Shown here piece by piece: positions 15,612 through 63,379 of a DNA stretch of 64,000 nt. The first letter of the stretch is position 1, and each line of letters opens with the position of its first letter. Made by a program: the position numbers and the translations under genes. The notes beneath the pieces were generated by a model. The model was not told where the DNA came from and ran no database searches. It saw nothing but the letters and a program-made list of their open reading frames with translations. The stretch is from a virus. The stretch lies in UHGV virus genome UHGV-2031204. One strand, 5' to 3'.

Positions 15612-16883
15612 ATGGCAAATTTCGCAAAAACTCGCGCCGCTCGTGAATCGATGGAAGCGGCCGATGAAGTAATCGACGGTATCAGCAACGTTGAACCGGC
15701 AGAAGAGAACCTGGACGTCCAACTTGCGGACGTAGCATCTATCGACGGTCAGCTCGATCAGCTGGAAACCGACGGTGAAACCCTGGCTGCCGATACCGAG
15801 CGTACTGAAGACGCTATCGAACAGGCGGAAGAAGCCGTTGCTAACGGTGAAGAAATGCCGGAAGAAGCGGTTGCCCTGCACGAAGTGGCACAGGAATCCA
15901 TCGCACGTCGTTGGTGCCTGGAACGTACTAAACTGGCACGCGAATCCTATCGCCGTGGTCGTGGTATGACTGCTGCTGCCCAGGAAGGTTGGAAAGAAAC
16001 CCTGAAAGATCTTTACGATCGTTTCATTCAGTTCTGTAAAGAAGTGATTGCGAAGATCAAAGACCTGAAACTGAAATATTTCAACGTCGGTAAGACCGCA
16101 CAGAAACGTGCGAAGAAATATCAGGAAATGCTGCGTAAGCTGGGCAAACAGAAGAAAGATGAGATCTCTGGTGGCTTTATCACCAAGCTGTCTATCGAAG
16201 GTAAATTCGATGCCGCTGGCTCTATCGCTATTGCGAAAGAAGTTACCGCAGGTAAAGCTAAAGGTTCCATCGCTGTTCTGGAAAAACAAGCTGGTGAAGC
16301 TGTGACTGCCGTTACCAAAGGTGACGATGACGCATTCAAAGCAATGCGTGGCGATCAGCCGGTAGAACTGTTTGGTAAAGCTGCTTCTAAACTGCACACT
16401 CTGCCGAACTTTGAAAAAGGTGATGCGTCTAAACTCCTGGCTCTGCCGGGCAACGCTTACGTTCAGGCTGGTACTAAAGAACTGGCTGGCGGCCACAAGT
16501 TCACCGCAATTGCTTTCATGAGCACCGGTGACGCTTCTGACGATAAAGACGTGAAAACTCCGTCTGTTTCTGAAATGGCTGGTGCTGCTTCTGCTCTGGA
16601 AGCGATCGGTAAAGGTTTCGAAGCCGTACTGAAAGATTTCCGTGCTTACGATTCTGAAATCGTGAAGCTGCAACAGGCTGCTGAGAATGCTGCTAAGGCG
16701 CTGAACAACGAAAAAGACGATAGCAAGTGGGATGGCCTGCGTAACGCACGTCAAGCTGCCGATTGGTCTGTTAAGAACTACCAGACCCTGAACCGCGCAG
16801 TTAGCTATGTTGCTAACACCGTTATTAGCGGTCTGAATGGCTACCTGGGTGCTGGTATCGGTGCTTACGAAAAATCTAAATAA
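15612..16883 (+). CDS. abundant protein, paralog A of a tandem pair (probable virion component)
   Basis: 423 aa; strongly host-optimised codons (CGT, CTG, GGT, AAA, GAA); acidic N-terminal region; shares MANF..ARESME start, KLGKQKKDEISGGFI core and GYLGAGIGAYEKSK C-terminus with the next gene. Confidence 0.9.
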   Translation: MANFAKTRAARESMEAADEVIDGISNVEPAEENLDVQLADVASIDGQLDQLETDGETLAADTERTEDAIEQAEEAVANGEEMPEEAVALHEVAQESIARRWCLERTKLARESYRRGRGMTAAAQEGWKETLKDLYDRFIQFCKEVIAKIKDLKLKYFNVGKTAQKRAKKYQEMLRKLGKQKKDEISGGFITKLSIEGKFDAAGSIAIAKEVTAGKAKGSIAVLEKQAGEAVTAVTKGDDDAFKAMRGDQPVELFGKAASKLHTLPNFEKGDASKLLALPGNAYVQAGTKELAGGHKFTAIAFMSTGDASDDKDVKTPSVSEMAGAASALEAIGKGFEAVLKDFRAYDSEIVKLQQAAENAAKALNNEKDDSKWDGLRNARQAADWSVKNYQTLNRAVSYVANTVISGLNGYLGAGIGAYEKSK

Positions 16884-16965: not shown

Positions 16966-18231
16966 ATGGCGAATTTCTACAAAAACAAAATTGCTCGTGA
17001 GTCTATGGAGTCTACTTCTACTGTAGTTCCAGACGGCATCGAACTGCCAGCAGAATCCGTAGAAGGCACTCTGGCCGATATCGAGCATGACACCAAACCG
17101 ATCGAAGCTCTGGACGCTGACGCTGAACTGCTGGCAGAAGACGGCGACGAAACTGACGCTCAGCTGGATGTTCTGGATGAAGCTCAGGCTGCTGCTGACG
17201 GTGAAGGTGCAGGCGAAGACGGTGAAGAACCGATGGATGCCGAAGAAGATATGCCGGACGACGCTGCGACTGCGCTGGACGTTGCTCAGGAATCTATCCG
17301 TTCTCGTTGGAACTTCGAACACCGTTCTTCTGTTGCACACGAATCCTACGGTTCTCGTAACCGTCGTCAGGTTGCTCGTGAATCCCTGTGGGAAGACATC
17401 AAAGCCTTCCTGGGCCGTATTCTCGATTGGCTGAAAGAACAAGGCCGCAAACTGAAAGATCGCTGGCTGAAATTCCACAACCAGGGTAAATCTATTCAGG
17501 CACGTGCTAAGAAATACGATGAAGTTATTCGTAAGCTTGGCAAACAGAAGAAAGATGAGATCTCTGGTGGCTTTATCAAGTCTCTGTCTATCGACGGCAA
17601 GTTCGTCGGTGATAATATTCCGAAACTGAAAGGTATCCTTAACCAGGTCTCCTCGTTCTATAGCGCTAAGATGCCTGCCATGGCCGCTAAAGCTGCTGAA
17701 GTGGTTTCCGATGTTACCAAAGGTAATGGCGTTAAAGTTGAAAAACTGAAAGCCGACTTTACCGAACTGTCCAAACAAGACAGTCTCCAAAACTTCAAGC
17801 TCGGTAACATGGCGGTGAAAACCGAGTATGACAACGAAGGCGGCTTCAGCTCCACCTTTGTTGAAGCTGAAAACAGCGTTGAAACTAGCGTGAAAACTCC
17901 GTCTGTTGGCGAACTGGCCAAAATCAATGCTCTCTTCAACGAAGTGGGTAAACAGATTGAGAAGAACGTTCAGGATTATCGTAAAGTCGAAAGCGCGCGG
18001 AAAACCTTTGAAGATAATATCGATAAGCTCCTGAAAGAAGTCGATAAAGTTAAGATCGACGAAAAACCGGAACTGACCGAAGGTGTACGTGCTGCCCGTC
18101 GTTTCATCACCAGCGTTAACCAGGGTCTGTCTCTGGGTGAGAAGGTTATTGCTTCTACTCAGAAACACCTGGCCGGTGGTCTGAACGGTTACCTGAGTGC
18201 CGGTATCGGCGCTTACGAAAAATCTAAATAA
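16966..18231 (+). CDS. abundant protein, paralog B of a tandem pair (probable virion component)
   Basis: 421 aa; same codon bias and shared blocks as 15612-16883, including a long near-identical nucleotide stretch around 17531-17606. Confidence 0.9.
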   Translation: MANFYKNKIARESMESTSTVVPDGIELPAESVEGTLADIEHDTKPIEALDADAELLAEDGDETDAQLDVLDEAQAAADGEGAGEDGEEPMDAEEDMPDDAATALDVAQESIRSRWNFEHRSSVAHESYGSRNRRQVARESLWEDIKAFLGRILDWLKEQGRKLKDRWLKFHNQGKSIQARAKKYDEVIRKLGKQKKDEISGGFIKSLSIDGKFVGDNIPKLKGILNQVSSFYSAKMPAMAAKAAEVVSDVTKGNGVKVEKLKADFTELSKQDSLQNFKLGNMAVKTEYDNEGGFSSTFVEAENSVETSVKTPSVGELAKINALFNEVGKQIEKNVQDYRKVESARKTFEDNIDKLLKEVDKVKIDEKPELTEGVRAARRFITSVNQGLSLGEKVIASTQKHLAGGLNGYLSAGIGAYEKSK

Positions 18232-18310: not shown

Positions 18311-18334
18311 CAGATATATATTACCTAGGTGAGA
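18311..18334 (+). promoter_or_regulatory. conserved promoter-like motif, copy 1 (cagatatatattacctaggtgaga)
   Basis: Identical 24-mer recurs at 26567 and, with 2 mismatches, at 54090; always just after a terminator and about 50 nt before a start codon; followed by an inverted repeat gagattac/gtaatctc. Confidence 0.55.
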
Positions 18335-18384
18335 TTACACAGTAATCTCTTTACGACTTGTTTATTACGTTTAGGAGAAATATC

Positions 18385-19026
18385 ATGAGCCGCATTAATT
18401 TAACTGATTTTGTTGATGGTGTTGTGTCTACGGATAAAGGTGTTGTTACGATGGTGGCACCGAATAGTAAAGTTGTTACTTTAAATCCGGTAGAACTGAT
18501 TTCTATTTCTACCTGGTTGCGCTTACTTTCTGGTAAGAAACCTAAAGACCAAGCGAAGGGTGGCCTATTAGTTGGTACACGTGAGTTTGTTTTCAAAGAC
18601 ATAACCCAAGATAAACTGGACAGCATTGCTAAAGAACTGAACGGCAAGCATAAAACTCGCGACATCGGGTGTGCCGAATATGACGGAGTAACGTACCATG
18701 CGTTTCTTGATAGTCACGTAGCATTGCGTGAAAAAGAAAATGGGATGTACGATTCAGTTTGTTTCTTTCACTTAATCGCACCAACAGAAAACGAAGCTGT
18801 GTATGAAACCGTTGAAAAATCGGCGGAAGCTGTTATGGAAACGGTGTCAGAACTTATAGAAGGGATGAAAAGAATCCCACGTGTGTTGAAAGTTACTGAT
18901 GGGGCTTTCGATTGTTTTAAATTATTACCCCTAATAGCTAGTAAAGAATACGAAGATGAGAACACCTTCGGACTATTCGAAATTAGTCTTTCGGAAGCAG
19001 TTGTTACTTTCTTTGAAGATTTATGA
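18385..19026 (+). CDS. hypothetical protein
   Basis: 213-aa ORF; ATG at 18385 preceded by ttaggagaaa; the track start at 18358 lacks an RBS. Confidence 0.8.
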   Translation: MSRINLTDFVDGVVSTDKGVVTMVAPNSKVVTLNPVELISISTWLRLLSGKKPKDQAKGGLLVGTREFVFKDITQDKLDSIAKELNGKHKTRDIGCAEYDGVTYHAFLDSHVALREKENGMYDSVCFFHLIAPTENEAVYETVEKSAEAVMETVSELIEGMKRIPRVLKVTDGAFDCFKLLPLIASKEYEDENTFGLFEISLSEAVVTFFEDL

Positions 19027-23709: not shown

Positions 23710-24249
23710 GTGGCTGAAAAACGTAGCGCAGCATTTATGCTGTTTCACAAGTGGGTGGGATGGCGTGTTCCTGAATGGACGACGATTTCAACGTACATGT
23801 CCCAGGAACATGGGCTGTTCTTACCGGAAGACGAGAAAAAAGCACGCGCGATACTACTCAATAAAAAGACTGTATACATGCGACCTTTCGAAGTTGCGGT
23901 TTATGCAGAATCGGGCGCGGCGTTAGACGTCCACGACCCACATGACGGGATCATTGTGTACGGGTATATCATGGAACACTTAGCTGATTGGCTAAATTAC
24001 ATGCAGACCCCACACCTGACAACACGTAAAGTCCCTATGGAGGGCTTGCGTCAGTTTAATGCGTTAGCGCGTAAACTGTTCCCGGTAGCGAACCGTTACG
24101 GTTACTTTAAGAAACCCGAAGTAACAATGGCGGTTTCCGTACAAGCGTTATTTGGCGAAGTTCGATTGGAAACAGAACGGCATCAGTTCAACGATACGAT
24201 TATGCACCGTATTGAACAGATATACCGTAGACGTGGAGGAATTCTGTAA
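23710..24249 (+). CDS. hypothetical protein
   Basis: In-frame GTG at 23710 one nt after the upstream stop, preceded by gaggga; the track start at 23608 lies inside the upstream gene. Start uncertain (ATG at 23695 is the alternative). Confidence 0.55.
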   Translation: MAEKRSAAFMLFHKWVGWRVPEWTTISTYMSQEHGLFLPEDEKKARAILLNKKTVYMRPFEVAVYAESGAALDVHDPHDGIIVYGYIMEHLADWLNYMQTPHLTTRKVPMEGLRQFNALARKLFPVANRYGYFKKPEVTMAVSVQALFGEVRLETERHQFNDTIMHRIEQIYRRRGGIL

Positions 24250-25568
24250 TGTCGTTTGGTCGGTTACAGAACATAGCAAACGTGCACATTGCACAGGCGG
24301 CGGGATTACCGGCCATCGACTACGTACCCCTTATCACGGTTCGTGGGGTGACGATTGACGTTTACAAAACCATGTCGATAATCCATGCCAGTAATTTCGC
24401 TCAGGATTTAACGACCATCACGCACCTCAGTGTGGTGATTCCACTGAGCCAGCAACGTATTCTTACGTCGTCGGCAGAAGGGGATTTATCAGTTAAAATC
24501 CTGATGCGGACAATGAACAAGAAAACCATTGCGCAACTGAACTACCGAGGAATTGTGGTTAACAACCACGATCCTGATATGGAATCACCTACAATGTTTT
24601 TGGGTGAATCTGACCAAAAAGGGTTGGGTGTGGTAACGTTGGAACTGATGGACGAATCGATGTGGTTCCTTCGTTGTCGCCAGGTAGGCGGGATTTACCA
24701 CGAAACTGACGGGTTAAGTGTCGTTCGTGCATTACTTGCTGACACATTACCTACCGGGGATGCACCAGAAGGTCAGTTGGTTGGTGTTGAATACGAGGAA
24801 GAGGAACAACAACCTTATCGCGACATTTTGATTCCCGATTCGCAAAGTTTTCTTTCGGTTTTCGATTTCATTCAGAACCGCTACGGTGTGTATAGCCAAG
24901 GATTAGGTGTCTTCTTGTATAAACACCGTTGGCATATCTTTCAACCGTGGGATTCTAAGAAATTCTCTACGGCAAAAAAGAAACTGGTGGTAATTAACCT
25001 TCCAAGAGAGAAAGTTGCCTATTTAGATAAAACGTGTCACATTGCAGGTGACGTCATTTATCTGATTTGTGGTGGCGATGTTCACACCTTCGAAGACAAA
25101 GACGCTCTTGCGCTAAATCAGGGAACGGGTTACCGCGTGGGTTCAATCCGTGCCTTAGATGGACGTGCAAGTTCTTTCTCTCCAGGCGACGTTTCAGCAA
25201 CGACGTCAGATTCGTTTGTTTCGGCAGCAGACCCTACACAGTACCCCGGCGGTGTTGTTAATGCACCTATTGATCCAAACGAGCACTTCAGCGACACGGA
25301 TAAGCCTCGTCGTTCTAAGTTGGCTGCCGCCAGAGGGACACTGACCGCAACGACCTGGAACCGTTCAGCGTACGGTTTATTGCAGCCGGGTATGGCAGTA
25401 AAATATCTGTATGCGAATAATTACGGTGTATACACTCGTTATGGGACGTTGGTTGGTGAAGTTTTCCAAGCTGCCGTTGACGGTGGTTCGATGGCGTCCC
25501 CACAATTTAATACCATTAGTCAATTGACGTTGTGGTTGACTAATGAAAAATTTACAACCGCTACGTAA
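24249..25568 (+). CDS. hypothetical protein
   Basis: 439-aa ORF; start overlaps the upstream stop (TAATG). Confidence 0.85.
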   Translation: MSFGRLQNIANVHIAQAAGLPAIDYVPLITVRGVTIDVYKTMSIIHASNFAQDLTTITHLSVVIPLSQQRILTSSAEGDLSVKILMRTMNKKTIAQLNYRGIVVNNHDPDMESPTMFLGESDQKGLGVVTLELMDESMWFLRCRQVGGIYHETDGLSVVRALLADTLPTGDAPEGQLVGVEYEEEEQQPYRDILIPDSQSFLSVFDFIQNRYGVYSQGLGVFLYKHRWHIFQPWDSKKFSTAKKKLVVINLPREKVAYLDKTCHIAGDVIYLICGGDVHTFEDKDALALNQGTGYRVGSIRALDGRASSFSPGDVSATTSDSFVSAADPTQYPGGVVNAPIDPNEHFSDTDKPRRSKLAAARGTLTATTWNRSAYGLLQPGMAVKYLYANNYGVYTRYGTLVGEVFQAAVDGGSMASPQFNTISQLTLWLTNEKFTTAT

Positions 25569-25600
25569 ATTATGTCGTCCGTAACCTAAAGGATTTGTTA

Positions 25601-26401
25601 ATGAGTAATCTACTTACTTTCAGAATGTCTGGTCAAACGTTAATCCAAATCGACAAGTTCGAAGAAGAGAATTTTTCGAAACCGTCGAAGTTGTTAGAAC
25701 GTTGCCTTAATGTTATTCCTGGTGGCGAACAACGCCAGTTGGACTACATCATGGCGTCCAGTGCTGACAAAACGATTTCTGTTATCTATACCGTAGACGG
25801 TGTACAGAATTGTCGCTTATTACCAATCGAAGAAAAAGGGACGTTAGGTCATTTGTTGTTCCTGCACGCGATCACAACCGCCGTGGTGTCTGGTGCTTTA
25901 GAAGCGCAATACGGCTTTGCTTATTGTTACTTCTATGCTCAGAAATTAGCTGCAGCGGTTGTTCCAGGGCAACAAGAAACCTATCCTCAGTATATTGAAC
26001 GTATTCTCCCTTCACACTTTAGTGAGTCGGAAGACTACGACTTCAATGCGTTTCGTTTTACCGTGGTGGGTGAAGCCCGCGATCCTGAATACACAACAGC
26101 GGTTCGTGCGGTGGTGCGCTATTCTGTTATTTCTACAGACAGCGGTACATCAAATAACTTTAATGAAGTGTATCCGGTCTTGCAGTTAGGTCCTTATGTG
26201 ACTTTCAACAGCTATGTGCCATTCAGTTGCCAGCTTGTGGGTCCGCAGGATAACGATTCTATTCTCCCTGTTGCGGAAGAAAAGTCATTGTTTATTCGCG
26301 AATCTGTAGAAGCTATTAGCGATAAGCGCTTTATGATTTCTTCGAAGACGGGCATTAACGATCCTGAAATCGCTGTAATGGATAAGATGCAAGGTCTGTA
26401 A
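25601..26401 (+). CDS. hypothetical protein
   Basis: ATG at 25601 preceded by aaaggatttgtta; the track start at 25595 is a TTG. Confidence 0.85.
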   Translation: MSNLLTFRMSGQTLIQIDKFEEENFSKPSKLLERCLNVIPGGEQRQLDYIMASSADKTISVIYTVDGVQNCRLLPIEEKGTLGHLLFLHAITTAVVSGALEAQYGFAYCYFYAQKLAAAVVPGQQETYPQYIERILPSHFSESEDYDFNAFRFTVVGEARDPEYTTAVRAVVRYSVISTDSGTSNNFNEVYPVLQLGPYVTFNSYVPFSCQLVGPQDNDSILPVAEEKSLFIRESVEAISDKRFMISSKTGINDPEIAVMDKMQGL

Positions 26402-26407
26402 AAACTT

Positions 26408-26447
26408 CCCGTTACCTCTATGGGTAACGGGAATACCTTTTATTTAT
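26408..26447 (+). terminator. intrinsic terminator
   Basis: cccgttacctctatgggtaacggg followed by a T-rich tract. Confidence 0.7.
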
Positions 26448-26566
26448 TCCTAAACGACACGCAGAAGTCATTTAACCGTTAAGACGACTAATTACCCTTT
26501 AAAAAGAAAATTGCGTCAGAATGCGTTTTAGAGCGTTCTAGAGGGTATATGGATTCAAAAAGATTT

Positions 26567-26590
26567 CAGATATATATTACCTAGGTGAGA
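26567..26590 (+). promoter_or_regulatory. conserved promoter-like motif, copy 2 (cagatatatattacctaggtgaga)
   Basis: Exact copy of the 18311 24-mer, about 45 nt upstream of the small ORF at 26637. Confidence 0.55.
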
Positions 26591-26636
26591 GTTTACGTAA
26601 TACTCATTTATCGAATACCTAATTAGGAGTTATATC

Positions 26637-26780
26637 ATGATTTCTGTAAAACACAAAAAAGCTATCTTCGCTGTTGTTATCGCTGTTGTTCTGGGTTGCC
26701 TGTATCTGGACATCGACAAAGGCTACGACACTTGCATCGACAACGGTAATTCCGTTGCACAGTGCACTGGTCGTGGTTAA
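26637..26780 (+). CDS. small membrane protein (47 aa, one predicted TM helix, Cys-containing C-terminus)
   Basis: Below the ORF-track size cutoff. RBS ttaggag before ATG; strongly optimised codons; hydrophobic AIFAVVIAVVLGCLYL; bracketed by promoter-like motif and terminator. Confidence 0.6.
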   Translation: MISVKHKKAIFAVVIAVVLGCLYLDIDKGYDTCIDNGNSVAQCTGRG

Positions 26781-26785
26781 TGTAT

Positions 26786-26817
26786 AAGGCACCTTCGGGT
26801 GCCCTTAATTTTTTTAT
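26786..26817 (+). terminator. intrinsic terminator
   Basis: aaggcaccttcgggtgccctt followed by a T-run. Confidence 0.75.
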
Positions 26818-26834
26818 TAATTGGAGCATAAAAG

Positions 26835-27650
26835 ATGATTACCATTAAAGATTATTTTCCGCGTGGACTGAGCAATGAAAACTTCGTTCCAACTGAAGAC
26901 ATTGCCATCGTAACAGAGTCTAGTGATAAGTCTTTTAAACTCTACTTGAGTACGGCAGCAGGAAAATCCACTCTTATCCTTCGCGAACCTGAAGTGATAA
27001 GCATCTGCTCGTTTGGGGGTGGTGTAGAAGGAACGATTAATTGGTTGAAATCCAGAATGCATCGTTTGCTTATCGTGAACACCGATCCTGTGATTCGTTT
27101 ACAGCAATTGAAATCGTTGAATGAAGTTATCGTCGGATTATTGGAACATGAAACGTTCGGTAATGCAGCGATTGCGGAAGAGATTAAATCTGTAGAACTA
27201 ATCGAGTGGAGTGATATCGAATACGAACGTGCTGCGTTATTCGCAATGTACGGTGACGATAATCCTGTTGTGTTTGCACAAACATTAGATAACGTTACAG
27301 TAACAGCGCGCGTATTGTTTGGCTTACAGCGTGTTGAGTTTGAACTGAAACACGTTTATGTAAGTAATACTCCAGAGATGGTGGAAACGTTGACTCGTGC
27401 GTTCGCTTACCCGTTAGACGGAGAATGGGAACAGCAGATTAATGAAGCGTTAGGCGCGATGCTGTTCTTAGCAGGCACACTAAGGAAAGAAGAGAAATTA
27501 GAAGGTCGTGTTTATCCAGAATACGATTTTGTTTGTGAAGAATGTGGAGCACAGTATCAAATACGTGTTCCTTTAACCGGCCTGACAATCCCGAAAGCCA
27601 ACGTGCAATGTAAGGAATGTGGCCATGTTCAATACGTAGCGACTAAATAA
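26835..27650 (+). CDS. hypothetical protein with C-terminal zinc-ribbon-like Cys pairs
   Basis: 271-aa ORF with ggag RBS; C-terminus has CEECG...CKECG (two CxxC pairs). Confidence 0.8.
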   Translation: MITIKDYFPRGLSNENFVPTEDIAIVTESSDKSFKLYLSTAAGKSTLILREPEVISICSFGGGVEGTINWLKSRMHRLLIVNTDPVIRLQQLKSLNEVIVGLLEHETFGNAAIAEEIKSVELIEWSDIEYERAALFAMYGDDNPVVFAQTLDNVTVTARVLFGLQRVEFELKHVYVSNTPEMVETLTRAFAYPLDGEWEQQINEALGAMLFLAGTLRKEEKLEGRVYPEYDFVCEECGAQYQIRVPLTGLTIPKANVQCKECGHVQYVATK

Positions 27651-27656
27651 AAGCAA

Positions 27657-27699
27657 CCCCTAATCCCGAAAAGGATTAGGGGTACACTTTATTTATTTT
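27657..27699 (+). terminator. intrinsic terminator
   Basis: cccctaatcccgaaaaggattagggg followed by a T-rich tract. Confidence 0.7.
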
Positions 27700-27947
27700 C
27701 GCAAATTCAACAACTTGGATTAAATAAAAGGCTTAAAGCCACTAACAATCATCGAGTACAGATCTTCACCGAAAGGAGAAGTAACTACTAAATAAAATAA
27801 AGGGGTGTGACAGCACCCCTTATCAAAGCTTTAACTTTTCGAAAAGAGAAGTTAAAGCAGGGTACGCTGTAGCACCAGCGTACCCTTTACAGCACCACCA
27901 CGTTTCCGTAGTGGATTTCTTTAATCACCCTACAAAGAGGGCTTACC

Positions 27948-28121
27948 ATGAACAATGGTTACTACTTTACTGACAAAATGCTTGCAGAACAGAGTGCAGC
28001 AAAGACCAATTTACAGCAACGTATCTACAAGTATAGTCAGCTCGGCATGGATAAACGGTTAAAACCGTCTACCAACCGTTTCACGCAGATATTCACCGAA
28101 AAGAGGAGTGAACACTACTAA
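27948..28121 (+). CDS. small protein (57 aa), cassette family member 1
   Basis: Below the ORF-track cutoff. ATG at 27948 preceded by aaagaggg; translation MNNGYYFTDKMLAEQSAAKTNLQQRIYKYSQLGMDKRLKPSTNRFTQIFTEKRSEHY; shares Q-R-I/M-x-x-Y-x-x-LG with the next small ORF. Confidence 0.5.
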   Translation: MNNGYYFTDKMLAEQSAAKTNLQQRIYKYSQLGMDKRLKPSTNRFTQIFTEKRSEHY

Positions 28122-28345
28122 CAAATAAAGAGGAGGCGTGTCAGCGCCTCCCCTCCTCGTACAGTAACCTGCCGAGATGGTGGTCGTAGGTATAATAAAA
28201 AGGGGTGCACCACCACCCCTTTTCTTAGCTTTAACTTTTCCGAAGAGAAGTTAAAGCAGTAGAGACTGTTCCATCAGTCTCTACTGTACGGTGACAACGC
28301 ATAAAGTTGTTGACGTTTTTACAACATTACAAAAGGTAATGAAAA

Positions 28346-28507
28346 ATGAACGAATATCAAATACAGATGTTCAATACCGCGATGCGAAATCGTGAAAAAC
28401 AAATTCAGTTTAACCAACGCATGGACGAATATGTTCGTCTCGGCCTCGTTGCGGCACCGAAAACGGTTAACAATCACAATGTTCACCAACCACCTGTAAG
28501 GAGATAA
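28346..28507 (+). CDS. small protein (53 aa), cassette family member 2
   Basis: Below the ORF-track cutoff. Translation MNEYQIQMFNTAMRNREKQIQFNQRMDEYVRLGLVAAPKTVNNHNVHQPPVRR; same cassette context as 27948-28121. Confidence 0.5.
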   Translation: MNEYQIQMFNTAMRNREKQIQFNQRMDEYVRLGLVAAPKTVNNHNVHQPPVRR

Positions 28508-28650
28508 GTTACTAACTAATAAAGGGGGTGGCAGCAACACCCCCTACTTAGTTCAGTAGTTGTTTCCCGTTCATAATTAATAGCCTTCTGTTTTTTTTTG
28601 TTTTTCGAGACGCATAAGGGGTCATAAGGGGGAGCCGAAGCTCCCCAGAC

Positions 28651-52654: not shown

Positions 52655-52742
52655 ACCCTAAATTTTATTACAGATTGATATTATCAATGTGACAACCGTA
52701 GTGAGTCGGTAACTCACCAATTTAAAAAAAGAGAGATAAATT

Positions 52743-54089: not shown

Positions 54090-54113
54090 CAGATATATTT
54101 TACTTAGGTGAGA
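54090..54113 (+). promoter_or_regulatory. conserved promoter-like motif, copy 3 (cagatatattttacttaggtgaga)
   Basis: Matches the 18311/26567 24-mer with 2 mismatches; directly after a terminator; followed by inverted repeat agagtta/taactct; about 50 nt before the HTH gene start. Confidence 0.5.
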
Positions 54114-54163
54114 GTTATGATTAACTCTTTACACCGACTTGTTAACCTAAAGGAGTATTTACA

Positions 54164-59380: not shown

Positions 59381-59405
59381 TAAGATATATTTCATCTATG
59401 TGAGA
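59381..59405 (+). promoter_or_regulatory. degenerate copy of the promoter-like motif, overlapping a perfect palindrome
   Basis: taagatatatttcatctatgtgaga shares the GATATAT and GTGAGA blocks; GTGAGAATTCTCAC (59398-59411) is a perfect 14-bp palindrome; about 30 nt before the ATG at 59437. Confidence 0.35.
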
Positions 59406-59436
59406 ATTCTCACTTAACTAAATGGAGTAATCTAAA

Positions 59437-62976: not shown

Positions 62977-63185
62977 ACAGAGCTAATGGATATATCATCT
63001 CGGCAATTGTTTCAACCGTGCTGATTGTGACGATGTTGATGTTTTATGTCCGAGTGTCAGATGACTCACGCAAAGAAAGTCTTTATCGTGAATGTATGTC
63101 GGGAACGTCCGTGGACAATCCGCGTTACAGCGAATTAGTAATAGCGTGCACAGAACATGCTAAGCTAATGGGAGATGGTCGATGA
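62958..63185 (+). CDS. small membrane protein
   Basis: 75-aa ORF; hydrophobic segment ISAIVSTVLIVTMLMFYV. Confidence 0.6.
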   Translation: MVFYTMNRANGYIISAIVSTVLIVTMLMFYVRVSDDSRKESLYRECMSGTSVDNPRYSELVIACTEHAKLMGDGR

Positions 63186-63379
63186 AAATTTGGTTACCGA
63201 TTGTAGCTTTTATTCTTATCGCAGGGGCACTAGCAAGTGCCGAGTGTGACAATCGTGTTTTAGAAAAGAAAAGCGAATTGTATCTGGATTGCATAAAGGA
63301 TTACACGCCAGGTACAGAGCTTCATGCGCAGGCTGTAAAAAGTTGTGCGTTGATGGCTGAATCGCAGACCCGTTCCTAA
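63182..63379 (+). CDS. small protein with N-terminal hydrophobic/signal-like segment
   Basis: 65-aa ORF; N-terminus MKIWLPIVAFILIAGALASA. Confidence 0.6.
   Translation: MKIWLPIVAFILIAGALASAECDNRVLEKKSELYLDCIKDYTPGTELHAQAVKSCALMAESQTRS

Follow-up and report, generated by a model that had tools for sequence, protein, structure and literature searches.

The gene and its transcription unit

The gene considered here lies at positions 26637-26780 of a stretch of virus DNA of 64,000 nucleotides (UHGV virus genome UHGV-2031204; the whole stretch is called the window below), which belongs to an SPN3US-like jumbo phage with two RNA polymerases. The product is a protein of 47 amino acids (aa), MISVKHKKAIFAVVIAVVLGCLYLDIDKGYDTCIDNGNSVAQCTGRG, one of whose tryptic peptides is CIDNGNSVAQCTGR. 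The gene adds one member to an uncharacterised family of small phage envelope proteins; it is not a new kind of element, since the family is already catalogued as hypothetical (PHROG 8574, SPN3US gp66, RefSeq WP_262880969.1). The gene, its signals and the gene that follows are arranged in this way:

26406-26433, plus strand: upstream intrinsic terminator, closing the 268-aa gp65 homolog (12-bp stem, 6 GC pairs, -19 kcal/mol, z = -5.4)
26552-26590, plus strand: conserved AT-rich motif of 39 nucleotides (nt), the putative promoter, with the core CAGATATATATTACCTAGGTGAGA at 26567-26590
26584-26612, plus strand: possible stem-loop near the transcript's 5' end, short and weak, beginning in GGTGAGA (-6.2 kcal/mol, not better than shuffles)
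26625-26629, plus strand: Shine-Dalgarno sequence AGGAG, 7 nt before the ATG, read directly in the sequence
26637-26780, plus strand: gene for the 47-aa micro-protein, ATG to TAA (member of PHROG 8574, homologous to SPN3US gp66)
26788-26815, plus strand: downstream intrinsic terminator, GGCACC-TTCG-GGTGCC and a T-run (-11.6 kcal/mol, z = -2.9)
26835-27650, plus strand: 271-aa gene, the next after the module, with its ATG at 26835

A sequence-only reading of this DNA had placed the gene between an exact copy of a conserved motif and a terminator, and both were found. The 24-nt core CAGATATATATTACCTAGGTGAGA, with 46 nt between it and the ATG, recurs unchanged at 18311-18334, and the downstream terminator, a GC hairpin with a UUCG loop followed by the T-run, begins 7 nt past the stop codon and is invariant among strain variants. 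On the upstream side, the module is isolated by the terminator at 26406-26433. The AGGAG-N7-ATG arrangement is seen once more at position 18385 of the window.

The same reading had the gene in a promoter-to-terminator module of its own. The module is indeed self-contained, but the next gene lies close behind it. The ATG at 26835 is only 20 nt past the terminator, which leaves no room for a promoter, and hence the 271-aa gene presumably depends on read-through, the terminator being probably leaky. In the relatives, the homologous gene is situated inside operons of two or more genes, where it takes the first to the third place.

The spacer of about 120 nt upstream of the promoter (26434-26551) contains GCGTTTTAGAGCGTTCTAGAGGGT. 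Related repeats, CCCTCTAAA / TAGAGGGT, are seen at the same place in SPN3US and ChrisDB (L001 3740-3850). This repeat element may serve as a binding site for a protein, or it may be a small RNA.

The putative promoter motif

Apart from the identical copy at 18311-18334, the core has a copy with two mismatches at 54090. The motif forms the repeat family D1, with six copies in the window; related copies are situated at 54090 and 59382, and weaker ones near 52656 and 33113. The 20-nt core of the motif has three matches in the window, compared to zero expected from shuffled sequences. The 24-nt core is the same in four related genera, where it precedes the operon with the homolog (ChrisDB, Huxley, Caitlin and SPAsTU), and the SPN3US copy differs by one base at the 3' end (GGTGATA for GGTGAGA). 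Each related genome has four to seven copies detectable by BLAST.

The motif is also found at larger distances. Its 40-nt version matches intergenic DNA of phiKZ-like Pseudomonas phages, for example, SL2 with AAAAAATAATTAAGATATATATTAC, and is present in Serratia phage PCH45 with AATTTCAGATATACATTACTTAAGTGA; further intergenic matches come from Vibrio phage pVa-21 and Pseudomonas phage OBP. In SL2 and PCH45 the copies sit in intergenic DNA 5' of small hypothetical genes. The other copies in the window precede a helix-turn-helix DNA-binding protein and small unknown proteins, and not structural genes. According to reviews, all jumbo phages with two RNA polymerases have a conserved AT-rich motif 5' of the early operons, and wherever a phage was profiled, this motif turned out to be the promoter from which the virion RNA polymerase transcribes early genes; in 201phi2-1 the motifs have only hypothetical genes downstream and are conserved at -10, -20 and -30 (PMC7598289, PMC11512511). 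Since the motif is common to the phiKZ-like phages and PCH45 and agrees with these descriptions of early promoters, and since the other copies in the window precede the helix-turn-helix protein and small unknown proteins, it is most likely an early promoter of the virion RNA polymerase, and the 47-aa gene is most likely an early one.

The window motif resembles the early promoters of the phiKZ type in being a long AT-rich element with ATATATTAC, in its intergenic position after a terminator, and in preceding small hypothetical genes. The difference is in its 3' half (CTAGGTGAGA) and the hairpin that follows, which are specific to the SPN3US-like group. A literature search with the motif string TATATTAC yielded unrelated papers only.

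Hairpins equivalent to the possible stem-loop at 26584-26612, although of different sequence, follow the copies at 18331, 54110 and 59400 and are present in SPN3US, SPAsTU, Caitlin and ChrisDB. After each copy the hairpin begins inside GGTGAGA (18331-18350, 26587-26606, 54110-54130 and 59400-59414 in the window; L001 3886-3905 and L007 ~2412-2436 in relatives). The stems vary yet keep the pairing: GAGATTAC/GTAATCTC, GAGAGTTA/TAACTCT and GTGAGA/TCTCAC, with GATAGA/TCTATC in SPN3US. Hence a conserved stem-loop may exist at the 5' end of the early transcripts.

Codon adaptation and expression

The codon adaptation index (CAI) of the 47-aa open reading frame, calculated with the E. coli weights of Sharp and Li, is 0.84. 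This is the highest value in the window, where the median is 0.27 and the major capsid protein has 0.73. None of 5502 46-codon windows of ordinary genes reached it, nor did any of 10000 synonymous recodings of the peptide. As a control independent of the E. coli weights, we used weights derived solely from the capsid gene of this phage and its two head-protein paralogs. With these weights the CAI is 0.834, compared to 0.287 +/- 0.061 (maximum 0.43) for the 61 other genes. The host-optimised codons of the sequence-only reading are thus borne out, as no control came up to the observed value. The homologs have CAI of 0.54-0.70, the top of the neighbourhood in four out of six loci and the second place in the other two (phiEaH2 and Caitlin).

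Among the strains, the promoter core, the 5' untranslated region and the terminator are invariant, and the flanks vary. The promoter copy, the ribosome-binding site AGGAG, the terminator and the codon adaptation all point to high expression of the 47-aa protein, in line with the large amounts expected from the first reading.

The family and its conservation

The protein matches the profile PHROG 8574, a family of unknown function, from end to end (residues 1-47 against all 47 profile positions), with E = 3.4e-23. While a single-sequence, word-indexed protein search produced one 98%-identical cluster only, the relatives emerged in exhaustive and profile searches: HMMER together with hmmsearch using the family alignment yielded about 32 clusters of proteins of 45-51 aa, unnamed or annotated as 'hypothetical'. 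The C-terminal half was found by tblastn in 61 phage records (Salmonella, Erwinia, Escherichia and Proteus phages). Altogether there are about 40 distinct family sequences, all of them from SPN3US-like phages whose hosts are Salmonella, Erwinia, E. coli and Proteus. The homologs keep the location as well, in a small-gene region between the gp64/gp65 homologs and a DnaB-like helicase, downstream of the promoter motif.

The relative in SPN3US is gp66 (SPN3US_0066 / YP_009153360, 47 aa), which is 53% identical over the full length, has the same CX9C-TGRG module, and shares the synteny and the upstream promoter motif. The two differ in several respects. The window gene is monocistronic with its own terminator, whereas the SPN3US gene leads a three-gene operon; the CAI is 0.84 here and 0.58 in SPN3US; and the lipobox-like cysteine of the window protein is absent in SPN3US. 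A role as a virion protein was considered and rejected, since gp66 does not occur in the three papers searched on the SPN3US virion and prohead proteomes.

Several observations concern selection. In the last 18 codons of seven phages there are 126 synonymous and 71 non-synonymous codon differences, and the invariant Gly, Ser, Thr and Arg are encoded with free variation at the third codon position. In metagenome strain variants, the changes in the gene are synonymous except for one T32I, while the DNA upstream of the promoter diverges. The replicon NZ_CP173450.1 encodes a 100% identical 47-aa protein with four synonymous changes, its neighbouring genes being 80% identical. Hence the open reading frame 26637-26780 is a real gene under purifying selection. 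Two antisense open reading frames on the minus strand, 26619-26792 and 26677-26829, were considered and rejected, as their frames are not kept open in the homologs and the synonymous pattern fits the plus frame.

The conservation is concentrated at the extreme C-terminus, with the consensus DY[ND]xC-x2-NGNS-x3-CTGRG. Seven positions (C33, G37, S39, C43, T44, G45 and R46) are invariant across 33 sequences, and Y30, N36 and G47 are nearly so; the motif C-x2-NG[NH]S-x3-CTGR[GS] ends all 39 distinct sequences. At the N-terminus the family keeps positive charge only, and the hydrophobic segment is variable in sequence. We had initially treated the N-terminal HKRAI, conserved in the first 13 sequences, as a possible functional cytoplasmic motif. 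It was dropped because it dissolves in the wider family, which retains the charge alone.

Predicted protein architecture and topology

Two parts of the protein are recognised:

26661-26708, plus strand: hydrophobic segment A9-L24, after the basic K5-K8; a signal-anchor or a signal peptide
26724-26777, plus strand: conserved C-terminal module Y30-G47, Y-D-x-C33-x2-N-G-N-S-x3-C43-T-G-R-G-COOH

The segment A9-L24 has a Kyte-Doolittle mean of 2.3 over 19 residues, and its hydrophobic run, at 16-18 residues, is long enough for anchoring in a membrane. The AlphaFold2 model built on 33 sequences (predicted local distance difference test score 86) has a helix at residues 4-35, the NGNS turn and a short helix at 40-44. 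The single transmembrane helix proposed from the sequence is therefore well founded as regards the hydrophobic segment, the helix and the targeting to the envelope, but the segment may be either an anchor or a signal peptide. The proposed three cysteines of the C-terminal half are two, C33 and C43; the third, C21 (26697-26699), is inside the hydrophobic segment, where it follows VLG, and the family does not conserve it.

C33 and C43 are 10 residues apart, on either side of the predicted NGNS turn. The C-terminal tail is probably exposed to the periplasm with a C33-C43 disulfide, and the predicted disulfide requires this location. The charge distribution agrees, with K5, H6, K7 and K8 on the N-terminal side of the hydrophobic segment and a net acidic tail on the other.

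The alternative to an anchor is a cleaved envelope peptide. In this case signal peptidase II would remove the N-terminal 20 residues, leaving a lipidated Cys21 followed by Leu that is sorted to the outer membrane. The product would be a disulfide-stapled peptide of 25-27 residues, for instance, a receptor blocker of the Llp/Cor type, and in the relatives lacking the cysteine, cleavage by signal peptidase I would give a periplasmic peptide. The C21 column speaks for this possibility: among 39 distinct sequences, A, G or S is found at -1 in 29 and Cys at the site itself in 18. Of the Cys-bearing members, 17 have A or G at -1, and 16, the window protein included, fit a relaxed PROSITE-like lipoprotein pattern. 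Moreover, the hydrophobic stretch before the putative site is only 11-13 residues long, hydrophobic and polar residues alternate past it (LYLDID, SYITLN, LSITVT), the N-terminal region keeps nothing but its charge in the wider family, and the homolog in the phage Kwan is named 'Lipoprotein' in UniRef. However, the strict lipobox [LVI][ASTVI][GAS]C is met by none of the 39 members. The window protein itself, with K5, K7, K8, the hydrophobic region and V-L-G-C21, fits the relaxed pattern and not the strict one. The cysteine is absent in 21 of the 39 sequences, SPN3US, phiEaH2, Huxley and Asesino among them, the AlphaFold2 helix continues through the site, and 16-18 hydrophobic residues suffice for an anchor. 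We regard cleavage as rather unlikely in itself, and the cleaved form, lipidated in this phage, as a serious alternative to the anchor. Whether the protein is anchored or cleaved, the conserved hairpin would still reach the periplasm.

A similar sequence was seen in one other context. P0007 (L013 448-1593), a 381-aa membrane protein encoded on a metagenome contig of 1.9 kb, contains four tandem copies of AYxxCIGNGxSASQC. The hhalign probability for the P0007 repeat and the phage C-terminal module is 85%, with 56% identity over 18 columns, so the CX9C unit may be a stand-alone mini-fold. The contig of P0007 yields no informative gene context.

Possible functions

The reading that we tentatively favour, at well below even confidence, is that the protein protects the infected cell, either by superinfection exclusion or by immunity to the genome-delivery or wall-degrading machinery of later phages. 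The injected virion RNA polymerase would transcribe the gene from the early motif, and large amounts of the protein would be translated within the first minutes after infection. Its basic N-terminal residues K5-K8, together with the hydrophobic segment, would direct it to the inner membrane, leaving the N-terminus in the cytoplasm and the C-terminus on the outer side. The tail of 18-20 residues, DYxxC-x2-NGNS-x3-CTGRG, would then face the periplasm, where the oxidised C33 and C43 would staple a helix-turn-helix hairpin. The tethered hairpin might act stoichiometrically on an envelope or periplasm-spanning component common to the Enterobacterales.

Early genes protecting the infected cell from a later phage are known: Imm and Sp of T4 and Llp of T5, the latter being a small lipoprotein that requires a disulfide. 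The window protein resembles these proteins and the Cor lipoproteins in being small, targeted to the envelope and, by prediction, early and active at the periplasmic face. On the other hand, it shows no sequence or profile similarity to any of them, PHROG 8574 being its sole match; it is two to four times shorter; and its gene does not adjoin a gene for a receptor-binding protein.

Several considerations weigh against protection of the infected cell. Superinfection exclusion was chosen by analogy, from a protein that appears early, abundant and periplasm-facing. The family is detectable in the SPN3US-like clade only. No link to a function came from scans of 13 members against Pfam, NCBIfam and the anti-phage defence models of PADLOC, the last of which matched no family for any member, nor from a profile search of PDB or Foldseek against PDB; nothing above noise was returned. 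The protein may not stay anchored, given the small-x-small rule followed ahead of C21 in most members, the relaxed lipoprotein pattern of 16 Cys-bearing ones and the UniRef label of the Kwan homolog. Finally, the early class derives from the conservation of the motif and from the literature, and the literature searched contained no mapped transcription start or time-course RNA-seq for SPN3US-like phages.

Two of the possibilities listed in the sequence-only reading, superinfection exclusion and inhibition of a host target, are still candidates. The latter would make the protein a small regulator or inhibitor of a host sensor kinase, a transporter or the divisome, comparable to MgrB acting on PhoQ, AcrZ acting on AcrB or the small membrane proteins that inhibit cell division, with the transmembrane helix and the hairpin serving early host reprogramming or arrest. 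The E. coli MgrB consists of 47 aa and has a basic N-terminus, one transmembrane helix with a cysteine, and two periplasmic cysteines about 10 residues apart. The window protein closely parallels it in the length, the basic N-terminus, the single Cys-containing helix and the distance of about 10 between the two cysteines. The gene is also probably early, and a host target that is itself conserved is suggested by the tail, which is kept in phages of several genera of Enterobacterales. However, the two proteins are not homologous and their periplasmic sequences are unrelated. Homology to MgrB was rejected, as hhalign gave a probability of 23% and aligned the hydrophobic segment only (17 transmembrane columns), and none of the 13 members had a Pfam match at E <= 10. 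Further, regulators of low-copy targets rarely need codon adaptation at the level of a capsid protein, and MgrB and AcrZ bind through their transmembrane helices, whereas the transmembrane sequence is poorly conserved here. We consider this kind of activity possible but doubtful.

The holins and antiholins of the first reading fare worse. A component of the lysis cassette, that is, a holin, an antiholin or an o-spanin, could well be a small single-pass or lipobox-like protein with cysteines, and in T4 the antiholin RI combines an N-terminal anchor with a domain in the periplasm. But the promoter is of the early type, and the proteins encoded on either side, of 268 and 271 aa, have, on reading of their sequences, no hydrophobic N-terminus, and so do not look like an endolysin or the i-spanin partner of a type II pair. 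No endolysin family was found among the genes scanned. A holin or a spanin is disfavoured because of this combination of an early-class promoter and no neighbouring endolysin or i-spanin candidate. In addition, the protein lacks prolines as well as a charged cytoplasmic C-tail, its C-terminus is predicted to be outside the cell, which does not suit a holin, there is no match to a holin or spanin in PHROG or Pfam, and half of the family has no lipobox cysteine. A role in lysis is thus very unlikely.

Least probable of all, in our opinion, is a membrane-active peptide that would permeabilise a membrane on accumulation, either depolarising the host membrane in the manner of Hok, Gef and TisB or acting on the lipid vesicle around the injected genome (Chimalliviridae). 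The protein is small and very hydrophobic, and it would be abundant and early; it could insert post-translationally into any membrane facing the cytoplasm, and lipid vesicles around the injected genome have been reported for this phage family, SPN3US included. Against this, the conserved part is the polar tail and not the membrane segment, the family is not detectable outside the SPN3US-like clade, and early depolarisation of the host would be expected to harm the phage. Homology to Hok/Gef was tried and rejected, since hhalign against Gef gave a probability of 5%, in the hydrophobic segment only, and Pfam Hok_gef did not match.

A bolder extension of the protective role, which we judge quite unlikely as a whole, is that the family represents an unrecognised class of early 'envelope immunity' micro-proteins of nucleus-forming jumbo phages. 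Here a small disulfide-stapled hairpin, made in bulk and tethered in the periplasm by a helix or a lipid, would seal the cell against genome delivery or, in a still bolder version, would insert into the early genome vesicle and help to open it. In both versions the CX9C module of 18 residues would represent a new binding fold that stands alone and also recurs, four times over, in a bacterial surface protein, P0007.

The phage, its host and the surrounding genes

The region around the gene has about 68-70% nucleotide identity to SPN3US-like jumbo phages, the nearest relatives at the locus being Erwinia phage phiEaH2 and Salmonella phage SPN3US with its relatives. The gene order is that of SPN3US: the gp64 homolog, the gp65 homolog, a run of small genes and, on the opposite strand, the DnaB-like helicase. 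The first two are situated as follows:

24249-25568: homolog of gp64, head-tail joining protein
25595-26401: homolog of gp65, 268 aa, function unknown

In the phage collection searched, the window phage has no match at >70% identity. The replicon NZ_CP173450.1, which is 80% identical over the region, is circular, has a length of 221,873 bp and was deposited as a 'plasmid' of a human urinary E. coli isolate; for this reason E. coli, or else a close relative, is very probably the host of the window phage. In public assemblies, the exact 47-aa protein turns up in 2399 indexed blocks, of which 337 hold contigs >200 kb, and many of the contigs with this protein are 220-225 kb long. It looks like a very widespread, apparently uncultivated lineage of SPN3US-like jumbo phages of E. 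coli. The exact-match scan of GTDB species genomes for the 47-aa coding sequence yielded no match.

Other features of the surroundings may be listed briefly. The 271-aa protein has weak C-terminal zinc-ribbon matches (CxxC...CxxC; Pfam Zn_ribbon_8, E = 1e-3) that are below the threshold, 19.4 vs the cut-off of 34.4 bits. Next comes a variable array of small genes at 27650-28650, with members at 27948-28121 (57 aa) and 28346-28507 (53 aa). Each array gene has a structured repeat unit at its 5' side (27792-27878 and 28192-28277), in which two GC hairpins flank the inverted repeat AGCTTTAACTTTTC/GAGAAGTTAAAGC. The strain variants have from one to four such genes between the 271-aa gene and the helicase.

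The tandem paralogs at 15612-16883 and 16966-18231 (423 and 421 aa; repeat families D2, D5, D6 and D19) have CAI of 0.69 and 0.64, and their position corresponds to that of the abundant head-protein paralogs in SPN3US. Another small exported protein, of 65 aa, is encoded on the plus strand at 63182-63379. Its sequence opens with MKIWLPIVAFILIAGALASA and goes on with ECDN...; the cleavage site is a classic ASA, and the mature part has three cysteines.

Implications

The nucleus-forming jumbo phages are well studied, but their early effects on the host envelope are almost unknown. The 47-aa gene combines codon adaptation at the capsid level with a putative early promoter and extreme conservation and prevalence, and is thereby a leading candidate for an early effector that is made in high copy and acts on the envelope. 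The protein is short enough for synthetic production and direct testing. If no phenotype is observed, it is one more small hypothetical protein. If it is an exclusion factor or an inhibitor of a host target, it would provide a handle on competition between jumbo phages and on a conserved vulnerability of the Enterobacterales envelope.

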